Shown here: positions 1,144 to 59,344 of the stretch, piece by piece
Layout: each line of letters opens with the position of its first letter
Position numbering within the stretch: the first letter of the stretch is position 1
Source: an uncultured virus (IMG/VR IMGVR_UViG_3300018494_000099)
Taxonomy: Duplodnaviria; Heunggongvirae; Uroviricota; Caudoviricetes
Length of the DNA: 64,000 nucleotides
Reading direction: 5' to 3' (one strand)
Virus record (IMG/VR): IMGVR_UViG_3300018494_000099
The notes under the pieces: model-generated
Database searches by the model: none
Told to the model about the DNA's origin: nothing
Seen by the model: only the letters and a program-made list of their open reading frames with translations
Program-made: the position numbers and the translations under genes

Positions 1144-1464
1144 TTACATGTTTTCATCGGCAAACTCCATCTTTGAACCGCACTGCGGACAATAATAGTA
1201 ATATCTGTGATACGGAACATGCTTCTTACAAGCGCTACATTCCATCATTGTAGAAGAATACCTAGACCACTTAGCATGACGAGTTCCGGGAAAATCTCTA
1301 AAAGATCCTTTTACTTCATTCTCATAAACAGGCAGGTCAATAAAAGTATTCCTCTCAGACATCTTAAGAAATCTTAAAATATTTTCAAAGTCTTCCTCAT
1401 ACTTAAAATGACTTCTATACAATCTTATAAAAGCTGTACCTGAAACATAATCGTCAATCTTCAT
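1144..1464 (-). CDS. protein with C-terminal zinc ribbon
   Basis: W...ECSACK...YCPQCGSKM. Confidence 0.65.
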   Translation of the reverse strand: MKIDDYVSGTAFIRLYRSHFKYEEDFENILRFLKMSERNTFIDLPVYENEVKGSFRDFPGTRHAKWSRYSSTMMECSACKKHVPYHRYYYYCPQCGSKMEFADENM

Positions 1465-3348
1465 ACTTTCACCTTACCAAGCAGCATAATATTACAAATT
1501 GCAATAGTCTTAAATTGATTACGTTCTCTAAGATAGTCAGACATATCATAGAAGCTATTTACAGTGTTAATTTTAGTAGGGCGGGTAATTAAACTACAGC
1601 TCTGACCACTTCGTCCCTCTTTGTCCGTACACCAATAAGAAATGGCATATAAGTATTGTTTTCTTTTCATTCTACCTCCACCTGGCTCAAAGCCACTTCA
1701 GCCTCTTCTTTGTATACAAAAGCAAGCTCGCCGAAAACATTAAAACCGATACTCTCAGTAGTACCATCAGATCTGCAAGCATCCACGTATCCAATAAATT
1801 GCTCTTCGGTTTCTTCTGTAGTAATCTTTACAATCTTAAGAGCTTCTACAATACCATAGCCGATGAAATAAATAGTTTCTCCGATCTCCGGTCGCTCAAA
1901 AGTTTCACTATAATAACTCATTTATTCTGCCTCCTCCTCAAGCCACATTTTAATAACTTCTCTATTGTTTGGTATATCATCCAAATCCGGGAAAAATCTG
2001 CATCTCTTTATGCCAGACTCGTCGGCTAACTCACAATAGGCACATTCGATAGTATCATCATAAAAAGGTGTAATACCGAGCTTTTCTTTTGCCTCTACAT
2101 AACGGCATTCAATAGACTCACAATTATCACAATACTTCTTAGCGAACCAGTTTGTCCAAGACGAGTTATCAAACATACCATTCTCGTCAAGCCAAGCCGC
2201 AAAGTCCTCTAAAGACATCTTTTTTAAGTTTTCAAAATTATTCACCATCTTCCTCCCAAGATCTCACCCACTCCTTTGCCGACTCATAGGTATAGAAACG
2301 TACTATGTTAGGACCACCATAATCTTCCCAAGAAAAGCTGTAGTAGTGTTCAAGCCAGACCCAAGTATCCTTTATTGCAACTGGAAAAAGAGCAAATCGT
2401 CTTTTAATTCGATCGTATACTGTTTTAGATTTATAAGGCCATCTCATTAAATATCTTCTCCTTCACTATAACCAATTTCTCCTCTGCTTAAGGCTTCGTT
2501 AAGTATTTCCTGTACTTCTTCAGCATTATTTTTAAACTCATACCAATCCCAGAAAGCGCCACTTGAGCAACTATTAATTGGCACTAAATGATATTCATCG
2601 CACATTCCATTGGCGTCGTAGTAATGATAAACTAAAGGAACTGCAATATCACCTTTAGTATATTTGCCAGACCAAGGTAGCTCAAGCATGCCCCACTTAG
2701 CCCAGAGAAAAAGCCCGTAGACCTTAGGCAGACTGTCTAAATATTTCTTTGTCTTAGGCGTATTCTTAAGCACCTTTCTTGCCATCGCAGTCCTCCAGCA
2801 TTTCATTTATTACTTGGTCTATATCTTCTTCTCTGACTACTGAGTAAGTTTCTGCCAACGGGTTATCTGTAGTGCACTCACCAACACTTTCAGTATATCT
2901 TAATAAATTTGCATGTACGCGTCTTAGAGTAAGCTTTCTCTCAATTTTACGCTCCTCTGCTATTCGTTCAACCATTTCTTTATAGAGCTCTTCAGTGTCG
3001 GCTATTAGTCTTTTATTTTGGTCCTGTAAGGTCTGCTTCTCAGCAGCGACACATCGCCACATATCCATTTCGGCAGCAGCTTTAGCAGCGGACCTTTCAT
3101 AACCCTCAGACTCATAAGCACCAATACTGTTTATCCAGTTCTGATAATTATAAAAAGCTTCTTTAAAAGTATCTCGCTCTTCAGTAAGCTTTTTATTTTT
3201 ATGTACGATGTCGTTAACTACATCAAGAGTATATTTAGCAATAACACTTTCGAGCGGGCTTTCTTCGCACTCCTCTTTAAGCGGACAAGTTTCACAGGAA
3301 TTACGTCCGTTAAGACTGCAGCACCTAAGTGCCTCAATAATATCATCT

Positions 3349-3582
3349 TTACTGTATTTCATTTTTCTTCTCCTTAACTCGATTATATATTCTTATAAGG
3401 TGCTCAGCGTATTCTGCTCTTTTATTATAAATCTTTACAGCACTATCAGGGTTTACTTTTGCTTCACCCCAGTCAATAGGTGTTTCACAGCATTCCGTAC
3501 ATCGAACATACCAAAGGTCTCTTTGGTCACCACATCGTGATAACTTAGGTATGCCGCCGCAAAAAGGGCACTTTTTTATCAT
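3349..3582 (-). CDS. Lar (restriction alleviation)-like zinc-finger protein
   Basis: KKCPFCGG...VRCTEC...AVKIYNKR matches the Lar-family layout; start uncertain. Confidence 0.55.
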   Translation of the reverse strand: MIKKCPFCGGIPKLSRCGDQRDLWYVRCTECCETPIDWGEAKVNPDSAVKIYNKRAEYAEHLIRIYNRVKEKKNEIQ

Positions 3583-4235
3583 AGAAAAATTAGCTCGTTT
3601 CTTAAGTAAGTTCAGTATCTTCATTATTCTCTTCCTCACTTTCAAAGTCTTTACAGGTATCAAACGGGTCTTTCTGCACCGGGTAGCTAAGAACTGATAA
3701 ATTACAGTAAACTACACATTTTCCTTTTTCAAAGTGAGGATATCCATATTTACAAAACTTACACCACTTACAGCTCATTCATCTGCCTCCTCGTCCGACC
3801 AGGCAATGCAACTGGTAAAGCCGTCAAAGGTAGCATTGTCAAACCAAAGATCCTCATCGGCTTTTTCTTTAGCAATATCCTTAGCTTCCTCTTCAGTGTC
3901 GGCCTCAATGTCATCATAATCCATAGTAAGCATTATGCTTACACTTACATTCCATTTCATTTCTCGGTCTCCTTATCCCATACTTCTTTACCGGTATTTC
4001 TATCAAGCCAGACCTTATCAAAGTAGTAGTATTTGGCATTGCAATTACAGAATAAGTTTGAGCCCTCAAAGTTCTCACATTCTGCTCCACAAAACGGGCA
4101 GGTCTTCTTATATCTTTTGCGCTCGCTCATAAAGTCCTCCAAAATAAATTTCATTATTATATAATACAATATTAGGATCGACCGTATAAATAAAAAATGT
4201 GAATAATTTGTTAATAAATCATTCACATTTATTTT

Positions 4236-4535
4236 TTAATTCATCTTTGCCCCACAACAAGGACAAAACTTATATGTAGTATTTGCTTTTCCTTTACACG
4301 CTGAACAGACTACGTGCTTAAACATAGGGTCTGGCATTTCTTCATCTGGTTCAGGACTCCAAGTTCCGTACCTCGCAAGAATAACATCTTCTGCCTTTAT
4401 AGAATCAATCATATGTATGAAATGTCTGTGTTCAGCTATGTGATTCTGACTCTGCAGAGGATTATTATGCGGATTATAATTCATGCTCTCGATAACTCTA
4501 TCGACTAGTTCATTAGCTTTTATATACTTATCCAC
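4236..4535 (-). CDS. protein with C-terminal zinc ribbon
   Basis: GTW...VCSACK...KFCPCCGAKM. Confidence 0.65.
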   Translation of the reverse strand: MDKYIKANELVDRVIESMNYNPHNNPLQSQNHIAEHRHFIHMIDSIKAEDVILARYGTWSPEPDEEMPDPMFKHVVCSACKGKANTTYKFCPCCGAKMN

Positions 4536-5284
4536 TTATCTTTCCCTTTCAGCTGGCTCTTCATCTAAAATTTTATACCCAATAGAAACACTGCTCTTAT
4601 TACTTCTTATTTGTTCAATAGGATAACCGCAAAAAGTATCGGGCTCATCTTTTGCGACAGTAAATCTTAGATCATATTTATAATTAACTGCCAAAGAATT
4701 AAACAAATCCGGTGTGATAAAGATAGTCGGCTTATAACCTGTTCTCATCTCAAAATTTTCGGCGTGATAAAGGATGTTATGAAACAAATTTTCTACTGGA
4801 TTTGGTGAAACATACATATAATTTTTACTCATAAGTTTACCCCGCATCAAACATTACTTCAGGAAACCAAGAAGTCTCTCTACCCTCGGTCTCTGTATAA
4901 TCTACATTAATACTGAACTTAGGTCTAAAGTCTCCATCGCCATCAGCATAAAAACCAATAAGCGAAGAATGACCTATATTACCATTACGTTCAAGTTGTC
5001 TCAAGAAAGAACAGAAATCATTTACCCATCTTTCAGGCATCTCACAATCAATAGTAAATCTCTTATTTGCCATTTTTCTTTTTCACCTCCCACCATTCTT
5101 TAATATCGTCTATCTCACGAGCCATTCTCTTATAGTACTCTTCTTCCTCTAAAACAGTACTGCAATCCTCACAAAGATATTCCTGTTCAACTTCTCCGTT
5201 AGCTACAGGACAATCCGGGTCGCCGTACTTACAACCATGCCACTTACAACAATGTGCAGCGTGTACTCCAATAGATCCTCTCAT

Positions 5285-5638
5285 TTAATCTCGCTCCCTT
5301 ACAGTAAGAATTTTTCCTTCAGTATTAATAATTTCATATTTATTTAGAAAATCATTCATTGATACTGAGTCATCTATAATAACTTGATAATGTGTTTCAT
5401 ATTTAGCAGGCGTTTCACAATATACTCCAAATAGAAATCCAAAAAGTAGACTTATAAATATTCCGAAACCTACTAGAGCTATCCAGCCTATTAAATCGGG
5501 GCCTTCAGTTATTGATAGAATTATACCAATAATTATAAAAATACCAAAGATTATGCTAAATGTAATCCAGAAAGCAGTCCAACCAAAACTGGATTCTGTT
5601 ACTACTTGAATTTCATTTAAAATTTCTACACCAGTCAT
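5285..5638 (-). CDS. membrane protein with two predicted TM helices
   Basis: Two long hydrophobic stretches (FWITFSIIFGIFIIIGIIL; WIALVGFGIFISLLFGFLFGV). Confidence 0.7.
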   Translation of the reverse strand: MTGVEILNEIQVVTESSFGWTAFWITFSIIFGIFIIIGIILSITEGPDLIGWIALVGFGIFISLLFGFLFGVYCETPAKYETHYQVIIDDSVSMNDFLNKYEIINTEGKILTVRERD

Positions 5639-5889
5639 TACTTTTCTCTCCTAATCATCTTAATCCAATCTTCAATAGCTTTCTCAACAGCTACATGATA
5701 AGGATTAAAAGTATTCCAGCCTCGACTGTCTGTATGGGCTCCGCAATAAGGACACTGTATTCTAACGTGATGGTATCTGTAGTCGCCAACGTCATCATAA
5801 TCCTCTATAAGCTCAGGCTCTTCACCGCAGAAACAATTAGGCAGGTCTACCGTTTCCTTACTTTCTTTATAATATTCAATTTTTGCCAT
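5638..5889 (-). CDS. Lar-like zinc-finger protein
   Basis: LPNCFCG...IQCPYCG...AIEDW; start at MAKIEYY after GGAGG. Confidence 0.5.
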   Translation of the reverse strand: MAKIEYYKESKETVDLPNCFCGEEPELIEDYDDVGDYRYHHVRIQCPYCGAHTDSRGWNTFNPYHVAVEKAIEDWIKMIRREK

Positions 5890-7030
5890 CAAACAAAACC
5901 TCCTTAAGCTTTTCAAACTCATCAAGATACTGGTCCCACTTATTCTCATTCCAGCCGGCGGTATAATCCTTAGTAGACATAATGTTATTATAATTTCTGA
6001 AAGCAAGGTCCTGATAAATCTTAGGAAGAGTCTGTACCCAGTAAGCATAAGTCTTTTTAGGAATATCATAGAGTCGCTGACAGGACTTAGCAATCTGATC
6101 GCCTACCTTATAGTAAGCCTTCATAAGATTCTGTACCTTCTCGAGCTCTTCCTTGTAGTCGGCGGCATAACAAAGAAACTCTTCTACCTCATTAGTAAGG
6201 ATTACGTTGATAAGATGCTTTCTATTGATCACATTATTATTCCGGGCGAAGTGCGCCATAACATAAGCAGGCGACTTTATCTTAACACGGTTAAAATTAG
6301 CATCACAGGCTACAACGCCTTCTGCGTCCCAAGGGAAATTCTCAGTAACCTTAATACAATGCTCCAAAGTATTAAAAGGGTACTGCTTAGGCAACTTAAA
6401 TCTTCCCATACCAAGAGCACCAGCAGCCAAAGGAGAACAGTTAAGCTCTTCTCCGGTATACTTATTACGAGCTCCAAGGAAATAGATATCAGGCTCTTCG
6501 TAAGGAATAACTACTCTGTTATAAGGGCCTACCAACTCAAACATATAGGTAAGGTCCGAGTCAAGCTCACAAAGAAAACTACTGCAGGTAGTATAGTATG
6601 TATGAATAGTTTCAGTAAAGTAAGTTCCGAAGTCAGGCATTCTAGCGTCACCAATCTCTGCCTTATAAGCATCAATAGTTCCATTAGTAGAGATCTTCCA
6701 AGAACCATCCCACCATACCTTAATTAGAGAGCCGTCGACCTTCTCAGATACGAAAGCGGTAGACCAATCAATCTCTGCTGCGTTTGGCTCTCCTGCATTA
6801 AAAAACTTCATAAACGGCCAACAAACAGGATGAGTCCAATCATCTCTTTTAAAGATAATGCCTCTAGCTTCCTGAACAATATGATTAGAAAAATCTGATC
6901 TGAGCTGGTCATAGTTAAAAATTACATAAGGGCCGTCTTCCTTTATCTTAAGATAATAAGGCTCTTGAGTCAAAAGCTCTTCCCAGTTATCGTGCATATA
7001 GCAAAACAAGCCAAGTTCAGTATTAAACAT
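5876..7030 (-). CDS. T4 Rnl1-like RNA ligase
   Basis: EARGIIF, PFMKFFN, motif I EKVDGSLI, FEL, EGVV and RVKIKS motifs typical of Rnl1-family ligases. Confidence 0.85.
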   Translation of the reverse strand: MFNTELGLFCYMHDNWEELLTQEPYYLKIKEDGPYVIFNYDQLRSDFSNHIVQEARGIIFKRDDWTHPVCWPFMKFFNAGEPNAAEIDWSTAFVSEKVDGSLIKVWWDGSWKISTNGTIDAYKAEIGDARMPDFGTYFTETIHTYYTTCSSFLCELDSDLTYMFELVGPYNRVVIPYEEPDIYFLGARNKYTGEELNCSPLAAGALGMGRFKLPKQYPFNTLEHCIKVTENFPWDAEGVVACDANFNRVKIKSPAYVMAHFARNNNVINRKHLINVILTNEVEEFLCYAADYKEELEKVQNLMKAYYKVGDQIAKSCQRLYDIPKKTYAYWVQTLPKIYQDLAFRNYNNIMSTKDYTAGWNENKWDQYLDEFEKLKEVLFDGKN

Positions 7031-11712: not shown

Positions 11713-12528
11713 TTAAAAGTTAGTTATAATAACTTCTTTGCCTTTTCTATTATCACCATTTCTATTAATACTCCGGCGAACGTCTACTTCAGTAAAGTTA
11801 AAGCCTCTATATAGATCTCTGATGAGCTCAGTATCATGGTTAGTGAGCATACAGTAAACTCCGTAGTCAGAAAGCTCCTTGTAGAAGTCAGAAAGCCTTA
11901 CATGATCCTCGTAGGCAAAACCTTCTTTAGTATAATCGACAAAAGAAGTAGGGGTTAAGGGAGCGTAAGGGCTGTCAATAAAAATAAAATCTTTCGGGGC
12001 TATACTTTTATCAGATTGTTCAAAGTCACCGCAAAGAAACCTTACATTCTGAATCTGCTTCGATACCTCTCTAAGGTGTTCCGCGTGAAACGATTGTCCA
12101 GTAAGTTTGCCATTAAAAGGAACGTTAAACTCTCCCTTACTATTAACTCTATAAAGACCGTTGAAACAGTGCTTATTCAAGTAGATAAATCTCGCTGCCT
12201 GTATAGGAATATCATTACCTAGATTTGAATTATAATTATCTCTGACACGGTAATAATAGCCTTTTGGGTCATCACTGTTTTCGTACCAAGAATCCAGTAT
12301 AGACAAATCTTCAATAACTTCTTCTACATTATCTCTAACCTGAAGATACATATTAATAAGCTCAGGATTAATATCATTAACTACTGCTTCTTCTGGACAT
12401 AGATCAAGTAGTACTGCTCCGCCTCCTAAGAAAGGCTCAAAGTATTTATTATATGAAGAAGGCATAAGTTCTTTAATCTTTTGAAGTAGCTGGGTTTTGC
12501 CTCCCGTCCATTTAATTATTGGTTTCAT
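11713..12528 (-). CDS. dam: Dam-family DNA adenine methyltransferase
   Basis: KWTGGK, EPFLGGGAV, NDIN, FNGLYRVN..G.FNVP, DSPY (DPPY variant), EVIITNF. Confidence 0.92.
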   Translation of the reverse strand: MKPIIKWTGGKTQLLQKIKELMPSSYNKYFEPFLGGGAVLLDLCPEEAVVNDINPELINMYLQVRDNVEEVIEDLSILDSWYENSDDPKGYYYRVRDNYNSNLGNDIPIQAARFIYLNKHCFNGLYRVNSKGEFNVPFNGKLTGQSFHAEHLREVSKQIQNVRFLCGDFEQSDKSIAPKDFIFIDSPYAPLTPTSFVDYTKEGFAYEDHVRLSDFYKELSDYGVYCMLTNHDTELIRDLYRGFNFTEVDVRRSINRNGDNRKGKEVIITNF

Positions 12529-19548: not shown

Positions 19549-19579
19549 AAAACCCGGCCAACGTTAATCGACCGGGTTT
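19549..19579 (-). terminator. intrinsic terminator closing the methyltransferase operon
   Basis: AAACCCGGCC...GACCGGGTTT hairpin with U-tract on the minus strand. Confidence 0.7.
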
Positions 19580-19586
19580 GCAAGTG

Positions 19587-20144
19587 TTACCTATTGTATC
19601 TGTCGTATTTCTTCTCAAGCTTCTTCTGAAGAACATAGACATCTGTTCTATTATATTTAAACTGCTTTGATTTCTCAGGATTAAACTCCTTCTTAATCTG
19701 TCCTGTCTTTACGTAGTAGTGAAGCTGCTGCTTAGTAAGCTTAAGAAGATCACATACTTCTTTCGCAGACAGGGCATTAAGATACCGGATAGAAGACCTT
19801 GTATCTGGGTCATATACCAGTCTCCAGTTACTAGGTTCCCAGATACCGCAGCATGTTCCGGGCTCTGCTACTGAACTAAAGAAAGTCTTAGTGTAGTGTA
19901 GAATACTTGCTTCACGTTCTCCGTCAAGATCACCACTATCTTCTAAGAATTCAAGAAGCTCCGGGATACTATCTTTATACTGAGTGTAGAGTTCTACTTC
20001 ATCAGGTTCATCGACAAGAAAACCTTCTTCTACTAGGGAGTCACGCTCCTGCTGGAATACCGCGGACACATCGAACTCTTCATTAAGTACAGTAAGATAA
20101 CACTCTCTGTATCCTACTTTAAGATCATATATAAGTTTAAGCAT
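19587..20144 (-). CDS. protein with C-terminal MerR/excisionase-type HTH
   Basis: LSAKEVCDLLKLTKQQLHYYVKTGQI...YNRTDV. Confidence 0.75.
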   Translation of the reverse strand: MLKLIYDLKVGYRECYLTVLNEEFDVSAVFQQERDSLVEEGFLVDEPDEVELYTQYKDSIPELLEFLEDSGDLDGEREASILHYTKTFFSSVAEPGTCCGIWEPSNWRLVYDPDTRSSIRYLNALSAKEVCDLLKLTKQQLHYYVKTGQIKKEFNPEKSKQFKYNRTDVYVLQKKLEKKYDRYNR

Positions 20145-20157
20145 CTACTTTATCTCC

Positions 20158-20616
20158 TTAGAAAAATGAACTAAATAAATCACCGGGCTCAGGCTTCTTC
20201 CAATCATAAGCCGAACTAAATACAGTAAGACATCTTGGATCGGTAGCATCTCCTTGATGCAAGTGATGATAAGGAATCTCAGGTTTCCCAAGTTCTCTAC
20301 AGATCTTGTTTAATCTTCTTCGGCAAGCATTCAGCATAGTTTTGTCTAGCTCATTACCGAATACTTTATTAGAGTCTGCCCCAGCAATTAAACATGCTGC
20401 CAGCAAGTTTCCTGAACCCGCAGTAGGATCAAGTATCTTCTGACCTGCTAAAGAATCGACTTCGAATCTTTCTATCATCTGGATACTCAGGGCTGCTGGG
20501 GTAAAGAACTGTCCAAGCTTATCTCTTTCTTCCTGAGTTCTTCCTGCATACATTTCTTTTTTAAAGCTTTCAAACTCTGCAGTTATCTTCTGCCTTACTT
20601 CTTTTGATAGAATCAT
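20158..20616 (-). CDS. N6-adenine methyltransferase SAM-binding half (motifs X, I, II, III only)
   Basis: GQFFTP, ILDPTAGSGNLL, GNELD, HQGDA; ends without NPPY. Confidence 0.8.
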   Translation of the reverse strand: MILSKEVRQKITAEFESFKKEMYAGRTQEERDKLGQFFTPAALSIQMIERFEVDSLAGQKILDPTAGSGNLLAACLIAGADSNKVFGNELDKTMLNACRRRLNKICRELGKPEIPYHHLHQGDATDPRCLTVFSSAYDWKKPEPGDLFSSFF

Positions 20617-20618
20617 TC

Positions 20619-20957
20619 TTAAACCTCAATAATTTCAAAATCATGCTCAAATATATTTTCTACTTCATAAGTAGTTATATCGATTTCATCTGTACAAATT
20701 TGATTCTGTATAAATTTATGGTGTAAAGTAAACTTTAGATTATGCTCTATAGGATTGTAGGTATAGGAAGAAATTTCCAATACTTGATTTTTTAAACCTT
20801 TTACAAATAGTTCTTTCGACAACACATATGGATCTGCTCCTTCAAAATATGTAAGCTCTCCATCTTTTATCGGTGGGGTTGGACGACTGTTTGTACCAAT
20901 AGCAATAGCTAAATTTACATTTAAACAAACTACTTCTGTATTAAACTTTACTTTCAT
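20619..20957 (-). CDS. hypothetical protein lying between the two methyltransferase genes
   Basis: ORF starting MKVKFNTE with GGAGAG RBS. Confidence 0.6.
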   Translation of the reverse strand: MKVKFNTEVVCLNVNLAIAIGTNSRPTPPIKDGELTYFEGADPYVLSKELFVKGLKNQVLEISSYTYNPIEHNLKFTLHHKFIQNQICTDEIDITTYEVENIFEHDFEIIEV

Positions 20958-20958
20958 A

Positions 20959-22176
20959 TTATCTCTCCATATCCTTAAAGTTTTCAAGATCAGCCATAAC
21001 GTCAGCTATCTCAGTTTCAGTGTAACCATAGTCAGCAAGGATTTCTTCTACGGTCCAAGCGCGAGTCCAGTCTACTTTCGGGAACCACTTGTTAACTGGG
21101 ATGCTACTGTCAATATTGAGCGCTACAAAGACCTTAGAAATAAATCTAAAACCATTTGCAGAGTATAAGAAGTTTGCACAATTAGTTTTTTCGATTTCAG
21201 AAGCAAAGCATACTAGATAAAAGTCACCAACTCTACCAAACTGCTGCTCGCTCTTTGCAGACTGCTCGATTACATCTTCGCCTGTAATACTATTAGTATT
21301 ATATCTTGTAATAAGACTATTTTTGTCATAAGGTAAGTGTCCATGAGCTGCATCACGTTTACCGATATATATAGACTTACAAACACCGACATCTTCAAAA
21401 GCTTTGAAAGACGGTTTGTACAAAGCGCTATCAATCGCGTAGTGTCGTTTAGCCAGCAAAGTTTTAAAATACCGGTCAAGCTGCTGGTCAATATACTGGG
21501 AGATCTCAAATTCTTCCACAGTCATCTCATTAGCATCTTTAACAACTTCACAAAGGTGAGTGGTAACTGCAGCATCTGCAAATCCATTCTGGATGGGCTC
21601 CATATTTCTTACATACTGATGAAGGTTACTTACTCTCTTGTAATCATTTGCAGGAAGCAGGTTAATGTACTGAGCATAAGAAACATCAGAACGAATCTTA
21701 TCTGTAATCATAGCACCAATCTTTCCATAAGGCGGATTGGCAATAATAAGGTCAAACTTCATATTAAATATTTCCTTTAGTTCAATGATATTAATTTCTT
21801 CGTTAAAGCTTGCGGCAGCATGTCTTTTGAGAATAGCATAAGTAGAATCAGTCTTACTAGGAACTACCGTCTTTCCGGATACATGCCACTTACCCACGGC
21901 GATATAGATGTTCGCAGGATCGAAATCGGCTTTAAGAAGCTCAAGGTAAAGATGAAAAGAAGTATCATTCTGCAGACAAATCTTCGCGGTCTTAGGTACA
22001 GCAATCCTGGCTACGATTGCTTTAGCAATACTTTCAGAAAAGCCGTAAGAAATGTTACCTCTGAAGTTAATCAGGTCAGGGCTGATGAGCTGCTTAAGAA
22101 TATCGAGATCTGCAGCACTTACCTCGGAACCCTGTCTGTTATAGAAATTAGTAAATCTGCTCTTAATAGTCAACAT
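20959..22176 (-). CDS. Eco57I-like methyltransferase catalytic/target-recognition subunit
   Basis: MKFDLIIANPPYG (motif IV); C-terminal PKVDWTRAWTVEEILADYGYTETEI typical of Eco57I-like MTases; no intact motif I. Confidence 0.75.
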   Translation of the reverse strand: MLTIKSRFTNFYNRQGSEVSAADLDILKQLISPDLINFRGNISYGFSESIAKAIVARIAVPKTAKICLQNDTSFHLYLELLKADFDPANIYIAVGKWHVSGKTVVPSKTDSTYAILKRHAAASFNEEINIIELKEIFNMKFDLIIANPPYGKIGAMITDKIRSDVSYAQYINLLPANDYKRVSNLHQYVRNMEPIQNGFADAAVTTHLCEVVKDANEMTVEEFEISQYIDQQLDRYFKTLLAKRHYAIDSALYKPSFKAFEDVGVCKSIYIGKRDAAHGHLPYDKNSLITRYNTNSITGEDVIEQSAKSEQQFGRVGDFYLVCFASEIEKTNCANFLYSANGFRFISKVFVALNIDSSIPVNKWFPKVDWTRAWTVEEILADYGYTETEIADVMADLENFKDMER

Positions 22177-22217
22177 CTTTTCATCCTCCTTAATATATAA
22201 TACGATATGAACAGTTG

Positions 22218-24608
22218 TTAAAGGCTGGTCGCAAGAAGAAAAGTCTGAGTGTTTCCAAACTTATTAATCATAGTCTCAACCAGGACTATATCCTTAAATC
22301 CGAGTTCTGCCCAAATCGTATCGAAGCAGACTCTATCTGTAATACTAAAAGTACAAGCAGTATCGTCTGCAAATGAAATGCTCTCACACTGGAAAGCTCT
22401 TCTCAGACCGAGTCGGAAAGCATGGGCAAGTCTTTCTACCATAGTTGCCTCGGCAGTTTTCTTTGTAGACTTCTCAGTACCGATCGCGGAAGTAATGTCA
22501 TCAATAGTCTTCTTCGCTGCAGCACTCATAGCTCTTCCTGCTTTAGTAGGTCTTTCACTCTTGTTAGCTTTCTTGGAAGTCTTAAGGTCTGCCCAGAGAT
22601 CGACACTGAACCAGTCTTCGAGATTAGGAACATCAGCAGTAAGCTCAGTAGCAGTATCCTCAAAGATCTGATAGATTCTCTGTGCCTGTCTGTCTTTGTC
22701 ACGAGCTTCGTTCAGAGCATGAAGAGTAGCAACACAGTCTTCAGTATAATCCTGATAGATTACTTCCTTACCAGAAAGTGCCTTCTTAATTCTCTTGATG
22801 GTCTCGCTGTGTTCCTTCGAAGGCTTTGCACCTTCGTAAGTACTGTAGTCACTGTTATAGATAAGGTTCTCTGCATTGTTGGTAAAGTCGAAAACAATAC
22901 CTTCGGGATTAGGTCTATCAGACTTAACAACTATTCTGCCGAGCTGCTGAAGATACAGACGAGTAGAATTTGTTTTACGGAACATGATGAGAGTATTGAT
23001 TCCATTGTAGTGAGCACCCTCATTTACCATAGCTACAGTAATCAAACACTTACTATGAGTATCTTTACTGTAATCCCTCTCGTCACTATTCTCGTTAGGG
23101 GCTTTATCATCGAACCATCTTTTAGTATCTGCCTTTACATCGTCTGCAAGTTTGCAGGTCAGGGTTCGCATGTAGTCAGAAGAAGCAAACTTCGGATCAT
23201 ACTTCTTCATGATAGCTTCAGCAAAAGGTATCTCGTCTTTGTTACTTACAAAGACAATAATCTTACGACGGTTATTCGGCATATGCTTTCTAAGAATGTT
23301 CTCGATCGGATTCTCGTTTGCCTGAAGATTAAGTCTCTCCCACAGAAGCATTCCTGCCGCACCGTGTTTAGCAAAGTCATCTTTAACATCTTCCATTCTG
23401 TAGATAGACTGGATGTAACCGAAGGGGTGAATATTTCCATTCTGAATTCCATCTGCCAGATTCAAACCGTAGCAAATTCGACCGCCGAAGATAGAGTCGG
23501 TTCCGTCAAACTGTTTTGAAGTAGGAGTAGCAGTAAGACCGATGATCTTAATATTAGTTTCTTTCAGAGCATGAACAACTCCCTCTCCCCATCTCTCTGC
23601 ATCAAGATGATGAGCTTCGTCACAGATGATTACACTGTACTGCGAAAGGTCTCTGAGTCTGTAGTCATTCATAAAAGTCTGGTAATTAAGAATATCTGCA
23701 TTTGCTCCAAGGTCTGTCCAGTTACGAGCATCTTCCCAACCCGTTTTGATAGTATCGCCAGGACCGAGAACCAGAGCTTTACCACCCACGAGTCTAAGAT
23801 ACTCAAGAGCTGTAGTAGTCTTTCCTCCGCCTGTACAGATATAAACCAAAGCAGACTGATTAGTTCTGAAGTAAGTAATGAGATCTGCGAAAGCACCGAC
23901 ATTATAATCGAAGAGCTTTGTATTCAAAGCTGCGGACTTAAGCTCTTCGTATACTGCAAGACGACCGCCTTCAGCACCGTCTTTCTTAGGAAGAATACAA
24001 ATCATCTCAAGAAGTTCTTCAGGTGTCTTGTCGAGTCGCTGTCTGATAAATGCAGAAGTGCAGAAACGATTTACTACCTTCAACCAAGCATCTCGGTTAT
24101 CAGTGATTACATTATTATAGTTGTAGTTACAACCCTTACCATCTTCGTTCTTGCTGCTGTACCAAGAAGTATCAGCATTACACATGATAGAGTTAATAGC
24201 AAGAAGCATCCACTGTACTCCACCAGGACCAGTAAGGTCTTCTTGATCATTGTCTGCTACATCAACATTCTGCTCTGCAATCAGAAGATGTTCCCAAGCA
24301 TGCTCGAGAAGATTACCATAGCACATGTTCTCTGCTTTCTGATACTCTGCAGAAGCAGTGACTGCAATATCAGGATTAGAAAGAGAAGGAACTATATCTT
24401 CACAGATGTGATGATACTGAAGACCGTCAGCTCCATGACCAACCTTGTTATTCTTCGTAGGCTTTCCAGTCTTATCAGAAATACGAAGCTCGCCGTCTTC
24501 AGTGATTCTAAAATAGTCTTCTCTTGTGTATCCGAGAGCATCATATTTTTCCTGCAGAAACTTACTTGCCTCTCTATAGTCATTAATCTCAAATACAGAC
24601 TTTATCAT
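22218..24608 (-). CDS. SF2 (Res-III-like) helicase with N-terminal HNH-like nuclease domain
   Basis: TGGGKT, IICDEAHH, GLTATP, EG, QQLGR helicase motifs; N-terminal YHHICED...NLLEHAWEH His cluster. Confidence 0.8.
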   Translation of the reverse strand: MIKSVFEINDYREASKFLQEKYDALGYTREDYFRITEDGELRISDKTGKPTKNNKVGHGADGLQYHHICEDIVPSLSNPDIAVTASAEYQKAENMCYGNLLEHAWEHLLIAEQNVDVADNDQEDLTGPGGVQWMLLAINSIMCNADTSWYSSKNEDGKGCNYNYNNVITDNRDAWLKVVNRFCTSAFIRQRLDKTPEELLEMICILPKKDGAEGGRLAVYEELKSAALNTKLFDYNVGAFADLITYFRTNQSALVYICTGGGKTTTALEYLRLVGGKALVLGPGDTIKTGWEDARNWTDLGANADILNYQTFMNDYRLRDLSQYSVIICDEAHHLDAERWGEGVVHALKETNIKIIGLTATPTSKQFDGTDSIFGGRICYGLNLADGIQNGNIHPFGYIQSIYRMEDVKDDFAKHGAAGMLLWERLNLQANENPIENILRKHMPNNRRKIIVFVSNKDEIPFAEAIMKKYDPKFASSDYMRTLTCKLADDVKADTKRWFDDKAPNENSDERDYSKDTHSKCLITVAMVNEGAHYNGINTLIMFRKTNSTRLYLQQLGRIVVKSDRPNPEGIVFDFTNNAENLIYNSDYSTYEGAKPSKEHSETIKRIKKALSGKEVIYQDYTEDCVATLHALNEARDKDRQAQRIYQIFEDTATELTADVPNLEDWFSVDLWADLKTSKKANKSERPTKAGRAMSAAAKKTIDDITSAIGTEKSTKKTAEATMVERLAHAFRLGLRRAFQCESISFADDTACTFSITDRVCFDTIWAELGFKDIVLVETMINKFGNTQTFLLATSL

Positions 24609-27600
24609 GTGTAACCTCCAAATTATCTTACATTATATTATACAATATGTAATTTATAATTTTTACTTTTTGTTATCAGTTTTTACCAGTGCTCCTTACA
24701 TTATATATTATATCACAAAATCCGACAAAATGTGCTAATAAACCGTTAATAAATTGTAAATAAAAAAGAACCATACCGTCTATCGATACAGTTCTTTTTA
24801 TTCATTAGAAGCTTTCGACATTGAGGTCAGCATCCAGAATCTCAACAATATTTCCAGAGTAGCTAGGATTCTCGGATACAGTGAGTACCTTGAATCTAGT
24901 AGGATACTGACGGAAGCCGTCGTGAGAAAGGATTCTGAAGCACTGTCCTTCCTTCATCTCTATCTTAGATTTGAACTCAAGGTTCATCGGCCAGTGGCTG
25001 GATTCTACTGTGTAATAAAACATATTAGGTTTCTCCTTTCACTTATTCGTTAATGGTCTTAACAAGTTTCATTTCAGGAGCACCCTCACCTGTATAGACA
25101 CCTGTGATTTCCATAATCCTAAAAGGATAAGGCCAACCGCCTAAGGTACCAGAGTCAGCATCATTACATCTATCCTCTGCTTCCTCAACTGTATCATAAG
25201 TATCAAACCTAGTCAGACTTTCGAAGTTCGGGGTAGTGGTATAATAGCTGTGGCGGGAGGAGTAAGTCAAGAACTCATTTTCATAACCAGGACCATCGTC
25301 TGTAACCACAACATACTTTCTAACCTTTTTAATTGCCATTTTAATATCTCCTTATTAATTATGTATTTGTTTTATAATTATATTATAACATGTTTTGATT
25401 CATTTGTAAACCCCTTTTGGTGATTGTTTACAATTTGTTCACAATTATGTTTAAACCATACTTACCAGCTCAAGCTGAATAGTATCCTTACCGGGAGAAT
25501 ACATAGAAGACCACTCTCTAGTAATCTTTGCAAGTGCCAGACCTTCAGCTACCTTATCGGAATCTGCATGCACTACAATAGTCTTATGCAAGGGCTCAGA
25601 GCCATTTACTCGTACCTTATAAGTATACATTTTCTTTTCCATAATCATTCTTCCTTCCTTTTATATTTTATATAGCTCCCTCTCGAGGATGTCTTTTTCT
25701 ACCATTATATTATACAGTATTAACCAAATAAATGTAGCCGGCTAAATAAATATTTTTATAGGTAAAGAAAAAGCACCCATGAGATAACCACAGGTGCTCT
25801 TTTAAATTATTAACCCAATCGTCTGATACGTCCGCCGGAAGTATTTATCACTACGTCGCCGAACTCTGAGAAGTGCTCATTGTCTAAGTTCCAAACGTAA
25901 GAGTTAACGTAGAAAGTATCCGGGTGCAAGGTATCCATGATACACTCATCAACACTCTGAGTATTCTTAGTTACGCATAACATGGACCAGCACTCCCCGA
26001 ACTCTAACCACTCATGAGTAATAGCATAGACTAAGACATCATTAGCTTCCTGCACTTTCTTTACCTTATCCTGTAGTACCAGGTCATTAAACAGATAATA
26101 CCCCGCGAATCTTTCGAAGAACATCGGTATATCTTCCCTCTCGAATTTCTTTATGTACGGTCTGTAGATGTCTAGCTTCTTTAAACATTGAATTGCAATT
26201 TCTTTCTGGCTCATGTTAATTTTCCTCCTTGGAATTATTTGTAAAACCATTTATGCATCAAGTCAGTCACGTAGCATCTATTATTACGTGCGATGACATA
26301 GAAGCCGCCACTTTCATTACGATACAATCTTAACTTTCGATGAAACACTATTCTTCCCGCCTGCTCCGAGCATACATACTGCAGGATCATCTTATCTGAG
26401 CTAACACTCGTGAGTGGTGTCTGGTAAAGAGTGCAGTTGTTATTACATGAAATAAAATTAGTTTCGCTAAGCTTCTTCATAGGTGCTTCCTCCTCTTTAA
26501 TGAGCTACTCGATTTCTTCAATAGAAATGATTTCGTACTCGCAGTCTGGATCAATGTCGAGACCGTAGAACTTCTTACACTCTTCTAGCGAGCTACAGAT
26601 ACACTGTTGCTCAGACCACTTACCGTCTTTTGAATACTGGTCTCTGTACTTAAATTTAATAAGTAACATTTAAAGCACCTCCTTCTTTACCACATTATAC
26701 CATATAATAAAACAAAATGTGCTACAAAATTACGAACTTTTAAAAAAATATAAAAAAAAATAAGGGAACCGAAGCTCCCTTATTATTAACGAGTAGCTTA
26801 GCGCAGCTCTGTACAATCTCTTACAACTACACTGTTGCCAAAGTCTTGCTGAAATCGGTAGATAGCGTCATTTCTATCGTAGGCTTCTACAATCATCGAT
26901 CTACGCTTATCACCGGACTTTACATTATTATCATAATAGACTACCTTAAAAGTTTTAGTTGCTCCCATAAGTTATTCTCCTTTTGTATTTTCTATTTTAT
27001 TATACGATACTGTATTAATTAGTTTCACCGTCGAGCTCGATTATTTGGATCGGAACAACTACTGCTCTTTCTCCGGGTCTCTTACGCTCATTAATCTCTC
27101 GACAAGAACTTTCTGCAGTTCCTTTGACTCTGTAAATAGAAGCCTGATTAAAGTAAGGTCCCCAGCGATTAACTCCTTTACCTCTGAAGTAGAGTCCTGT
27201 ATCCGGGTTCTTAAGTACGTAGTAGTTCATGTTAATCCTCCGAATGTTCTTTAGTAATTCTTTCCCATTCGCCGAGAAGCCAAGTAGCAAGCTCTTCCGC
27301 ATCGTCTTCCCACTCGAGAGCGACACAGGTATCATCTACGTTTCCTTCCTCGTCGAAGGGCATGTTCATCATCTCAAAGTCGGTGTAAGCGTAAGGTCCT
27401 TCGTTCATGGCGATCTTAACACACATCGCATACTTTGGATTAGTCTTACTTACACAAAGAAGATCATCCCAGCTTTCTGAGAAGCCTTCCATCCAGCCGC
27501 CGATAATAGAGAAAGGTGAATCCTTTGTTCCCTTAAACCATGAGATGAGAATGTCGCTATCTCCTTTAGCGAGTTCCTTAAGCTGCTCGATCCATTCAGC

Positions 27601-57570: not shown

Positions 57571-58254
57571 TTAAGCTCTCTGAAGTTTAGTCCAGTTATA
57601 CCAACCATAGAAAGCATTAGCAGTCCAAGCGATATACATAGCAACCATAGACCACTGACCGAGAATAATAAACATAACCAAACTTGCTACATCGATAAGA
57701 ATCCAGCAAGCCCACTGTTCTCTGTATCTCCAAACCATAAGAAGCTGAGCAATAACAGCAAGAGCAACAGTCATAGCGTCAAGATAAGGAAGAGTGCTTC
57801 CGAGAACTGCTTCGCCGAAGAAACCAAGAAGGAATGTACTAATTGCAACTACGCCAGCAGACACAAGCCACTGCCAAAGCTTAAACTTCTTCGCCTTAAC
57901 CTGTTCAGAGCCGTCTTCATTTTTAGTCATATTCTTTTTCCACATAAAGACGCCGAAGATACAAACAATGAAGTAGAACACCTGTTCACCGAACTCAAGA
58001 TAGAGTGCAAGGTCCCAACAGATAATCATATATGTAACCATCTGAAGGAAGTTGAAGAAGTAAGAGGAAATCTTTCCTTTCGCTGTCAGGGCAACGCAGA
58101 TAACTCCAGCAAGTCCACAGACAATTCCGATAGCAGAGTCAGGTACAATGAAATACATAATTACCTGAAGCAGAATAAGAGAAGCGAAAAAGATCTTCTC
58201 AAAAGCAGTATAACCGTTCCAAAATTCGTTCTTAAGCCATTTTACCATTTTCAA
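57571..58254 (-). CDS. pnuC: nicotinamide riboside transporter PnuC
   Basis: Multi-TM protein; PYLDA, AQLLMVWRYREQW..WI..D, GWYNW; overlaps nadR. Confidence 0.9.
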   Translation of the reverse strand: MKMVKWLKNEFWNGYTAFEKIFFASLILLQVIMYFIVPDSAIGIVCGLAGVICVALTAKGKISSYFFNFLQMVTYMIICWDLALYLEFGEQVFYFIVCIFGVFMWKKNMTKNEDGSEQVKAKKFKLWQWLVSAGVVAISTFLLGFFGEAVLGSTLPYLDAMTVALAVIAQLLMVWRYREQWACWILIDVASLVMFIILGQWSMVAMYIAWTANAFYGWYNWTKLQRA

Positions 58255-59344
58255 TAATCTCCTTTACATCATCAACAATTTTCTTAAAGTTATTATAATA
58301 TCCGCCGTCGAGAATAACTACTTTATCCCAGTTTCCGGAAGCTTTTATGTTATTACAAAGAATTTCAAAGAGTTCTCTTCTCTCGTCCATACCACTGAAC
58401 TCCATATAACGAGTGTGATCGTCTACAAAAGTTCCGTGTGGACAAAGAAGATAAATCTTATCCCAACGGCATTTCTTAGTAATAGCATCTGCAGCAACAG
58501 CAATATCTTTGAACTCTTCTTCAGTAAGGTCAAGCTCAGGGTCTCTGTGATAGTACTCAGCATACATACGGGTAGTCATACTGTCAGAGTCAGCAAAGAA
58601 GATTCCCTGATTACTCGGTGAATTAATCAACTTTTTATTCATCTGATACTGTCCGTCGAGAAAAGCAAGATAGTCAGCACCATCGAGTTCCCATTCAGAA
58701 ATATAACTCTCTCCCATATAGTCTCTGGCATACTCATGAGAATAAGGCGCATTGAAATATTTACCAAGGTCTTTTACCAGAGTAGTCTTTCCTTCGCTCG
58801 CAGTTCCGCAAATAAGAATATTAGTACTGAATACTCTTCTAAAAGGAAAAGTAATTTTGTCCCAGTACTTAATAGGATTTTCTCTTATCATTGTAGCTGA
58901 GATGGGATTTTCAGTGCGGTCAAGAAGGACTACTTCAAAACCTTCTTCTGTAAGTCGAGCATGATAAGCGGCTTCACTAACATAGAAAACCGGTTCAGGA
59001 TATTCCTCAGTGCCATTTCTGAAGATGTCTTTTACAACCTCAAGAAACGGAAGCCAGCCATTAGGATAAGCAGGAATATTCTTTTCAGTCTCGTCTATGG
59101 GATAAACAGCAACAAGGTCGTCATCAGCGAAGAATTCTCTTACATAACGATAACGACGTCTCAGAGGCATCTTCTCACCGCCACGGTCTCCCTCTCGACC
59201 ATCGACAATTACAATACAACCGCCGTCACATTCTTTCTTAGCTCTCATAATAACATCAAGGTGTCCCTGATGCAAAGGAGCAAAAGTTCCAAAGACAATA
59301 CCAACCTTTTTGCCTTTAAGTTTTTTCTGATAGGTATAAATCAT
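58232..59344 (-). CDS. nadR: NadR-type NMN adenylyltransferase / nicotinamide riboside kinase (no HTH)
   Basis: FGTFAPLHQGH (HxGH), ISATMIR, Walker A GTASEGKTT, EYAR. Confidence 0.9.
   Translation of the reverse strand: MIYTYQKKLKGKKVGIVFGTFAPLHQGHLDVIMRAKKECDGGCIVIVDGREGDRGGEKMPLRRRYRYVREFFADDDLVAVYPIDETEKNIPAYPNGWLPFLEVVKDIFRNGTEEYPEPVFYVSEAAYHARLTEEGFEVVLLDRTENPISATMIRENPIKYWDKITFPFRRVFSTNILICGTASEGKTTLVKDLGKYFNAPYSHEYARDYMGESYISEWELDGADYLAFLDGQYQMNKKLINSPSNQGIFFADSDSMTTRMYAEYYHRDPELDLTEEEFKDIAVAADAITKKCRWDKIYLLCPHGTFVDDHTRYMEFSGMDERRELFEILCNNIKASGNWDKVVILDGGYYNNFKKIVDDVKEIIENGKMA

Follow-up and report, generated by a model that had tools for sequence, protein, structure and literature searches.

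A candidate phage restriction-modification cassette with a predicted split gamma-type adenine methyltransferase and internal translation start

The window considered here is a stretch of 64,000 nucleotides, the first 64 kb of a 124-kb record of an uncultured virus (IMG/VR IMGVR_UViG_3300018494_000099), and the system of interest is a set of five verified open reading frames (ORFs), all on the minus strand, between positions 19587 and 24608. On balance, we favor reading this locus as a phage restriction-modification (R-M) cassette whose gamma-type N6-adenine methyltransferase (MTase) is formed from two chains, one of them an isoform made from an internal start. The parts of this reading differ in strength. 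It is quite probable that the methylase consists of two chains and reasonably likely that an internal start is the route to it, while a restriction role for the cassette is only slightly favored. The architecture, its conservation, the linkage of the genes, the fusions, the variation of the target-recognition domain (TRD), and, at the level of the family, the start signal are established.

The smaller of the two MTase proteins, at 152 aa (20158-20616), is a stand-alone half that would bind S-adenosylmethionine (SAM). It contains motifs X, I, II, and III and no NPPY of motif IV, as an initial annotation made from the sequence had noticed, and the Pfam N6_Mtase model matches residues 27 to 99 above cutoff. 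The protein has 348 homologues; among the small ones listed, DPxxGxG is present in 120 of 120 and motif IV in none, so the truncation is conserved and not a sign of decay. Residues D63, P64, G67, S68, and G69 are invariant in all 111 aligned small homologues. BseCI is the top sequence match, or among the top matches, for the small and large families alike, and a search of GenBank phages returned only three weak partial matches to the 152-aa protein and none to its 405-aa partner. In one relative (P0241), the small-family domain is fused to an unrelated, Gln/Met-rich stretch of about 310 aa that precedes it, and motif IV is again absent.

The 405-aa protein (20959-22176) belongs to a family with 673 homologues. 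It matches Pfam Eco57I above cutoff and contains motif IV as NPPY at residues 147 to 150 (21727-21738), of which N147, P149, and Y150 are invariant in 86 of 86 aligned homologues. Its AlphaFold2 model (pLDDT 93) is a complete seven-strand class I fold followed by a TRD and aligns with M.TaqI over residues 44 to 372 against 21 to 413 (Z 13.0, root-mean-square deviation 3.7, 267 residues aligned), giving the gamma-class fold and the motif order X-I-II-III-IV-VIII followed by the TRD. An intact motif I and an acidic motif II on the chain that bears NPPY are missing. With residue equivalence inferred from strand 66-69 of the model, Gly is found at neither GxG position in any of 72 aligned homologues and the acidic residue of motif II is absent in 71 of 71. 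The NPPY, Eco57I-like region, and degenerate motif I of the initial annotation are all confirmed by these data, but its description of the two ORFs as complementary halves is not, as an entire M.TaqI-like fold, with a degenerate SAM half of its own, is present in the 405-aa model. This half, called N' here (residues 1 to 138; 21763-22176), keeps the X-I-II-III topology in the secondary structure of the model, and the residue counts by column show that its SAM-binding residues are gone. Because the model aligns with M.TaqI from residue 44 to 372, N' is predicted to occupy the very place where the small protein would sit. When profiles of the small and large families were compared with each other, no significant match emerged (probability 2.3%, E 0.02), so the case for homology between N' and the small protein is one of fold and topology and not of sequence.

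The halves of the large protein are also exchanged separately, as N' and the catalytic half recombine independently at a junction before motif IV. In P0144, P0148, and P0149, N' is 93-96% identical to that of the window and the catalytic half only 45-47%. The TRD is a hypervariable region (residues 249 to 328; 21193-21432) between conserved flanks, as in Type ISP/IIG enzymes; among 193 homologue pairs that are at least 85% identical over residues 1 to 215, its median identity is 27%, which is the pattern expected of swapped TRDs. A 593-aa large protein (L022:470-2251) matches the family profile of the TRD region twice, a tandem TRD duplication, and a search for longer proteins, which passed over lengths of 267 to 401 aa, found only 2 among 7999 scored candidates.

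The boundary between N' and the catalytic half carries a start signal. In the window, a putative internal ribosome-binding site (21777-21773) precedes an in-frame ATG (21762-21760, Met139), the whole element spanning 21760-21778. Across the family, a Met lies 6 to 12 residues ahead of motif IV in 89 of 104 homologues that bear N', compared with 13.8% of other windows, and the same placement is seen in 24 of 32 members of a distant second clade. DNA was available for 25 genes, of which 20 have an ATG at the boundary; 19 of these 20 have a Shine-Dalgarno (SD) energy of -4 kcal/mol or below, calculated against the anti-SD motif, compared with 9.8% of 184 other in-frame ATGs. When the protein is held fixed, the real SD is stronger than the mean of synonymous recodings in 23 of the 25 genes (Wilcoxon p 1.5e-7). 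The boundary start codon is TTG in L022 and L034, and in L146 N' is a 121-aa gene of its own whose stop codon overlaps the boundary ATG. From these sequence features, the 405-aa gene likely makes a 267-aa catalytic and TRD isoform from Met139. The initial annotation overlooked both N' and this conserved start, and it is the start, by omitting N', that probably resolves the conflict between N' and the small protein. No description of such an MTase split or internal start was found in the literature, most subscription papers lying outside the coverage. A group of MTases of about 1000 aa (L104, L105, L107, L109, and L111) combines an intact motif I with a start immediately ahead of motif IV that has a strong SD, and possibly uses the same two-isoform trick.

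The small gene is rarely without a motif-IV gene. The sample consists of 37 distinct loci with a stand-alone small gene, several of them close kin; a motif-IV/TRD gene is present in 26 of the 27 informative loci, and 10 further contigs are too short to judge. The ORFs containing an NPPY string directly after the small gene in L051 (585-812) and L054 (547-777) encode 75-aa HTH-like (helix-turn-helix) proteins and were rejected as partners and left out of the count. The spacing from stop to start is -4 to +5 nt in 15 of 16 direct junctions measured; in L022, about 4.7 kb separates the two genes, and the genome contains a second large gene with only a single small gene. One 233-kb record, given a completeness of 100% and identical at 99.99-100% across the window's contig, contains one copy each of the small and large genes; when its 778 ORFs were scanned by pattern, motif IV turned up in no other. 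In the reverse direction, five of six distinct viral loci found through the large family have the small gene.

Fusions provide a second line of evidence, with the small family joined in cis to a catalytic half in three orders: the gamma order (P0251 and P0338), catalytic-TRD-SAM (P0242 and P0246), and catalytic-SAM (L026 and L060, with TAG read as Gln; two genes neighboring the L026 fusion also have in-frame TAG). The pieces are encoded together in some genomes and fused in others, as expected of a split MTase. The model of the L026 fusion is middling (pLDDT 67, pTM 0.65). In a comparison with 48,161 chains, its 11 best matches are all beta-class MTases, with both halves included in the superposition, the best over residues 2 to 207 (Z 10.9, root-mean-square deviation 3.6, 144 aligned). 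The co-occurrence and fused homologues sought at the outset were thus both found. The reversed gene order of the initial annotation corresponds to nothing more than the beta-class order seen in fused relatives. Likewise, the proposed heterodimeric MTase with an ATP-dependent partner gains from the co-occurrence, the fusions in both orders, and the one-fold fusion model, but in its simple form it meets the obstacle that the large protein's own N' blocks the small protein's place.

Genes starting right at the strand that precedes motif IV make up 15 of 150 matches (e.g., L029, L056, L058, and L146). One small gene accompanies two such catalytic-half-only genes in L056 and in L146, and three tandem motif-IV genes in L058. 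The L146 run (1411-6567) contains a helicase, two catalytic-half-only genes, the 121-aa N' gene, a SAV1803-like gene, and one small gene, and can be described as the fully disassembled form of the system. In L058 (2-2344) and L057 (1329-2372), tandem motif-IV/TRD cassettes with near-identical C-terminal ends stand before one small gene, and the difference in cassette number suggests recombinational shuffling. Two phages, L141 (2963-4446) and L142 (4986-6270), have a motif-IV gene with a SAM half of 156 to 164 aa whose motif I resembles the bacterial type described below. Over 18 pairs, similarity of the small protein correlates with that of the catalytic half (Mantel rho 0.42, p 0.0015) and with that of the TRD (rho 0.29, p 0.016), which indicates co-inheritance and not co-evolution. 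The two trees, the second built by a quick method, have several small clades in common and are mostly unresolved; a mixed alignment led by P0242 was misaligned and left out of the results.

The same layout is found in a widespread three-gene system of bacteria, at loci L007-L016 and L150-L153 and on plasmids of Rhizobium and Lactococcus (e.g., NZ_CP013575.1 and pUC047G, respectively). There, the small protein is a SAM half of 215 to 250 aa (X-I-II-III) without NPPY. Its large partner either has an altered motif I (DPxxK[ST]G) or is fused behind a helicase, and has an SD and ATG eight codons ahead of NPPY. These loci are annotated as 'N-6 DNA methylase' with 'Eco57I domain protein' and a GIY-YIG/T5orf172 helicase. 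They differ from the window in having the small gene on the upstream side and in being distant in sequence. Matches were found in 7 of 301 genomes of one family, and 74 plasmid records match the small protein. The system is partly catalogued, as PADLOC model PDLC03375 (348 positions) begins at the boundary Met, and no paper on the mechanism of the bacterial three-gene system was found in the literature.

Upstream of the MTase genes lies a 796-aa superfamily 2 (SF2) ResIII/DEAD-like helicase or translocase (22218-24608), a putative restriction subunit. It matches Pfam ResIII (4e-11), DEAD, and Helicase_C as well as phrog_16, with Walker A at residue 258 and DEAH at residue 330; with motif VI also intact, it qualifies as an SF2 Res-type ATPase of the Type III kind. 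The His-rich N-terminal domain (residues 10 to 139; 24192-24581) matches the NCBIfam model SAV1803_dom (NF053682) at 69.6 bits against a cutoff of 40 and is a putative, unconfirmed HNH-like nuclease. Residues H66, H67, E70, N94, N99, E102, H103, and H107 are invariant in the four aligned sequences. One neighbor cluster of this domain in the Atlas is 12% HNH at a TM score of 0.45, and an Atlas cluster couples a domain similar to it with Eco57I. SAV1803 is treated as a hypothetical marker in the single paper that names it (PMC6805111). The SAV1803-like domain is fused to the helicase in the window and in the genome of L022, whereas in L023, L045, and L146 it is encoded on its own, next to the small gene. 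An SF2 helicase is adjacent in six loci (the window, L022, L023, L052, L145, and L146). In five others (L003, L025, L033, L035, and L050), a GIY-YIG domain is fused ahead of N' (Pfam E values of 1.5e-4 or lower, one falling slightly short of the cutoff), and these domains match homing-endonuclease models. The locus is not a MADS system with mad1-mad8 and a full-length MAD2: mad1 matches at E 4e-4, MAD2 scores 19 bits against a cutoff of 720, and no other mad genes were found among the six ORFs scanned.

A mechanism can be proposed from these parts. A 267-aa isoform containing the catalytic half and TRD would be translated from Met139 within the 405-aa gene, leaving strand beta4 exposed. The 152-aa protein would pair its beta1 with this strand, complete the sheet, and supply SAM, and the resulting dimer would methylate target sites of the phage. 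The long isoform would be unable to methylate, as its own SAM-blind half would plug it, yet its TRD, being identical, would still recognize the site that the dimer reads. It would likely bring in the SF2 translocase and the attached His-rich domain to cleave DNA that lacks the methylation, whether from the host or from co-infecting phages. Because one TRD gene would serve both isoforms, restriction and modification would stay matched after a TRD swap. In its fullest form, this proposal is tentative: one gene may be read two ways, with the plugged long isoform targeting restriction and the short isoform, completed in trans, acting as the methylase. One small subunit may serve several swappable catalytic/TRD cassettes, the bacterial three-gene system may follow the same design, and the relatives may be living intermediates of the circular permutation by which amino-MTases went from gamma to beta order.

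Several observations weigh against this interpretation. The window's own SD is modest and by itself not significant, at -5.7 against a synonymous mean of -4.6 (p 0.36), and L057 and L025 are without a convincing internal start. A start and SD occur at the same place in 5 of 16 intact gamma-MTase controls, all five of which are similar proteins of about 1000 aa. An acidic helix favors GA-rich codons, and the p-values overstate independence because the loci are related. Turning to the partners, the small gene of L055 has no partner within 6 kb and lies next to a beta-class MTase. The sixth viral locus reached through the large family is a 28.8-kb phage with terminal repeats and a catalytic-half-only gene but without a small gene, for which a host or a helper might supply the other half. 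This phage (L029:6989-7825, G004) also has a free-standing homing-endonuclease-like gene. The L026 fusion model may owe its result to likeness to solved beta-class structures. Finally, the helicase of the initial annotation stands, but its HNH-like N-terminus is unconfirmed, as the His-rich domain matches SAV1803_dom and has no HNH match among Pfam HNH or PDB sequences.

It is possible, though unlikely, that the two proteins swap domains with no second start being used, in which case the small protein would displace N' of the full-length 405-aa chain and turn a reader into a methylase, the Met and SD being a relic of gene fusion. The common topology of N' and the small protein fits this explanation, as do the fused genes of L057 and L025 that lack an internal SD and the junction in L146, which is an ordinary gene boundary. 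However, the SD and start are kept across very different amino-acid contexts and start codons (ATG and TTG) in both phages and their bacterial kin, which suggests current selection, and the 405-aa model is a well-packed single fold. Similarly unlikely, perhaps a shade more so, is a two-piece methylase with a protective, anti-restriction role only, the helicase and His-rich domain being vestigial or otherwise employed. Phage DNA methylases are common, a Dam-type MTase is also present in the window, the nuclease identity of the His-rich domain is unconfirmed, and TRD shuffling would also fit the tracking of host specificities. Such an enzyme would nevertheless have no role for a retained SAM-blind long isoform, and varied nuclease and helicase partners recur with the pair, including the GIY-YIG domains fused to N' in five loci and the T5orf172/GIY-YIG helicase of the bacterial counterpart.

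The position of the cassette raises the question of a selfish, homing-type element, in which nuclease, TRD, and self-methylation would spread the cassette into cassette-free sister phages during mixed infection and would not act in defense or in the breakdown of host DNA. In L003, L021, L023, and L025, the cassette lies right after the major head gene, the GIY-YIG domains resemble those of homing endonucleases, and a related phage from the same samples lacks 20145-24831 between shared flanks. We regard this as improbable, as insertion sites vary widely among loci and a short, shuffled TRD target would presumably give many cut sites and not one homing site; as an account of the biological role, it can stand alongside the biochemistry of the two-chain reading. 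Least probable of all, and very much so, is a self-sufficient 405-aa protein with non-canonical SAM binding through a conserved Asn-Asp, the small protein then being a regulator or SAM sensor. Its fold is complete and 70 of 72 close homologues retain N70 and D71, but both are lost in more distant N' halves, genes without any N' adjoin the same small family, and intact enzymes exist in which a small-family domain, fused in cis, takes the position of N'. Of these explanations, the R-M cassette with a two-chain methylase and an internal-start isoform is the one we retain.

The remaining genes of the unit are less closely tied to the pair. Between the small and large genes lies an orphan ORF of 28.5% G+C content (20619-20957), a passenger with no family in profile searches, which is replaced or absent in most relatives; the sole homologue noted at the same position is in L034. 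It is open from a TTG as 122 aa (20619-20987) and from the ATG at 20957 as 112 aa, and from sequence the shorter form is more likely because this ATG has an SD and there is a homologue of 112 aa. Downstream, a 185-aa protein (19587-20144) has a C-terminal excisionase/MerR-like HTH and is a possible regulator or insertion-site flank. Its matches (HTH_17/MerR in Pfam, PHROG, and PADLOC mad1) are weak, those to HTH_17/MerR below cutoff. The terminator of the initial annotation is confirmed: an intrinsic terminator at 19550-19579 with a 13-pair stem, 6 GC pairs, and a T run ends the five-gene unit. In 8 of 37 loci, the small gene is followed by one that encodes an HTH protein. In three samples, a related phage keeps the HTH gene and terminator, and in two of these a contig spans the 20145-24831 gap with other sequence instead. 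Because this phage retains the flank without them, the upstream four genes are a variable cassette.

The locus, over at least half of its length, is present in six runs, all of them metagenomes of animal faeces, which may be its source; none of the 24 runs listed is an RNA run holding the locus. Phage genes in the region include a ligase, NrdD, NadR/PnuC, and a Dam-type MTase. The last is a separate and intact D12 adenine MTase (11713-12528), and GATC is depleted genome-wide (556 against 801 expected, both strands); genome k-mer bias could not be linked to the TRD of the 405-aa protein. Promoter-like sites number 22 against 17.4 +/- 4.0 by chance, which is not above expectation, and none is claimed. 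A TATAAT-repeat motif occurs between genes (e.g., 24640-24655, minus strand), with 13 copies on the coding strand and 0 on the other by 10-mer count, and is likely a phage promoter signal. Further along the window are genes for a PnuC transporter and a NadR-like nucleotidyltransferase of nicotinamide adenine dinucleotide salvage (57571-59344) and a 994-aa protein with YadA-head-type repeats (60979-63963), probably a tail fiber or adhesin.

If the proposal is correct, it would describe a new coupling of restriction and modification to one specificity domain, through alternative starts and mutually exclusive half-domains. It would also explain the broken look of the widespread 'N-6 DNA methylase' and 'Eco57I domain' genes, which would be predicted to fail when cloned one by one. 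The intact, split, plugged, and re-fused permuted forms would make a natural series for the long-debated origin of circularly permuted DNA MTases, and the pair itself would be a natural split methylase with exchangeable TRDs. Large gut phages would then carry R-M-like weapons.

The closest relatives by fold are the gamma-class N6-adenine MTases (M.TaqI, CamA, and M.BseCI; N6_Mtase and Eco57I), with which the window's enzyme has in common the X-I-II-III-IV-VIII-TRD order and NPPY. It differs from them in that the SAM half of the main chain is degenerate, the intact SAM half is in a separate gene, and a second start is predicted inside the gene where beta3 meets beta4. In Type III R-M (EcoP15I), a separate ResIII-like helicase gene similarly adjoins the modification gene. 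The Mod of Type III systems forms a homodimer of intact beta-class chains, and the Type III nuclease is C-terminal, whereas the MTase here is gamma-type and split and the putative nuclease is N-terminal. A beta-class Mod with its TRD between motifs VIII and X on one chain is not found, as the MTase is gamma-ordered and beta order appears only in fused relatives. The Type ISP/IIG enzymes (LlaGI, LlaBIII, MmeI, and Eco57I) resemble the proposed system in having a gamma MTase, a single TRD for restriction and modification, and TRD swapping, and Type ISP also has an SF2 translocase and nuclease. These are single chains, and the window instead has separate ORFs with their own stops and SD sites and an MTase split inside the Rossmann sheet. 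There are precedents for both unusual features. The C5 MTase M.AquI forms an active enzyme from two separately encoded pieces, such split C5 enzymes being cut at another place than the window's MTase (PMC5944983). In McrB, internal initiation gives a second isoform that alters complex assembly in a restriction system; the McrB short form inhibits restriction, whereas the short form here would be the methylase (PMC12707154). Models of MTase permutation have also been put forward (PMC3320104 and PMC6158711). Among these systems, the window's cassette appears to work like a Type ISP/IIG enzyme in pieces.

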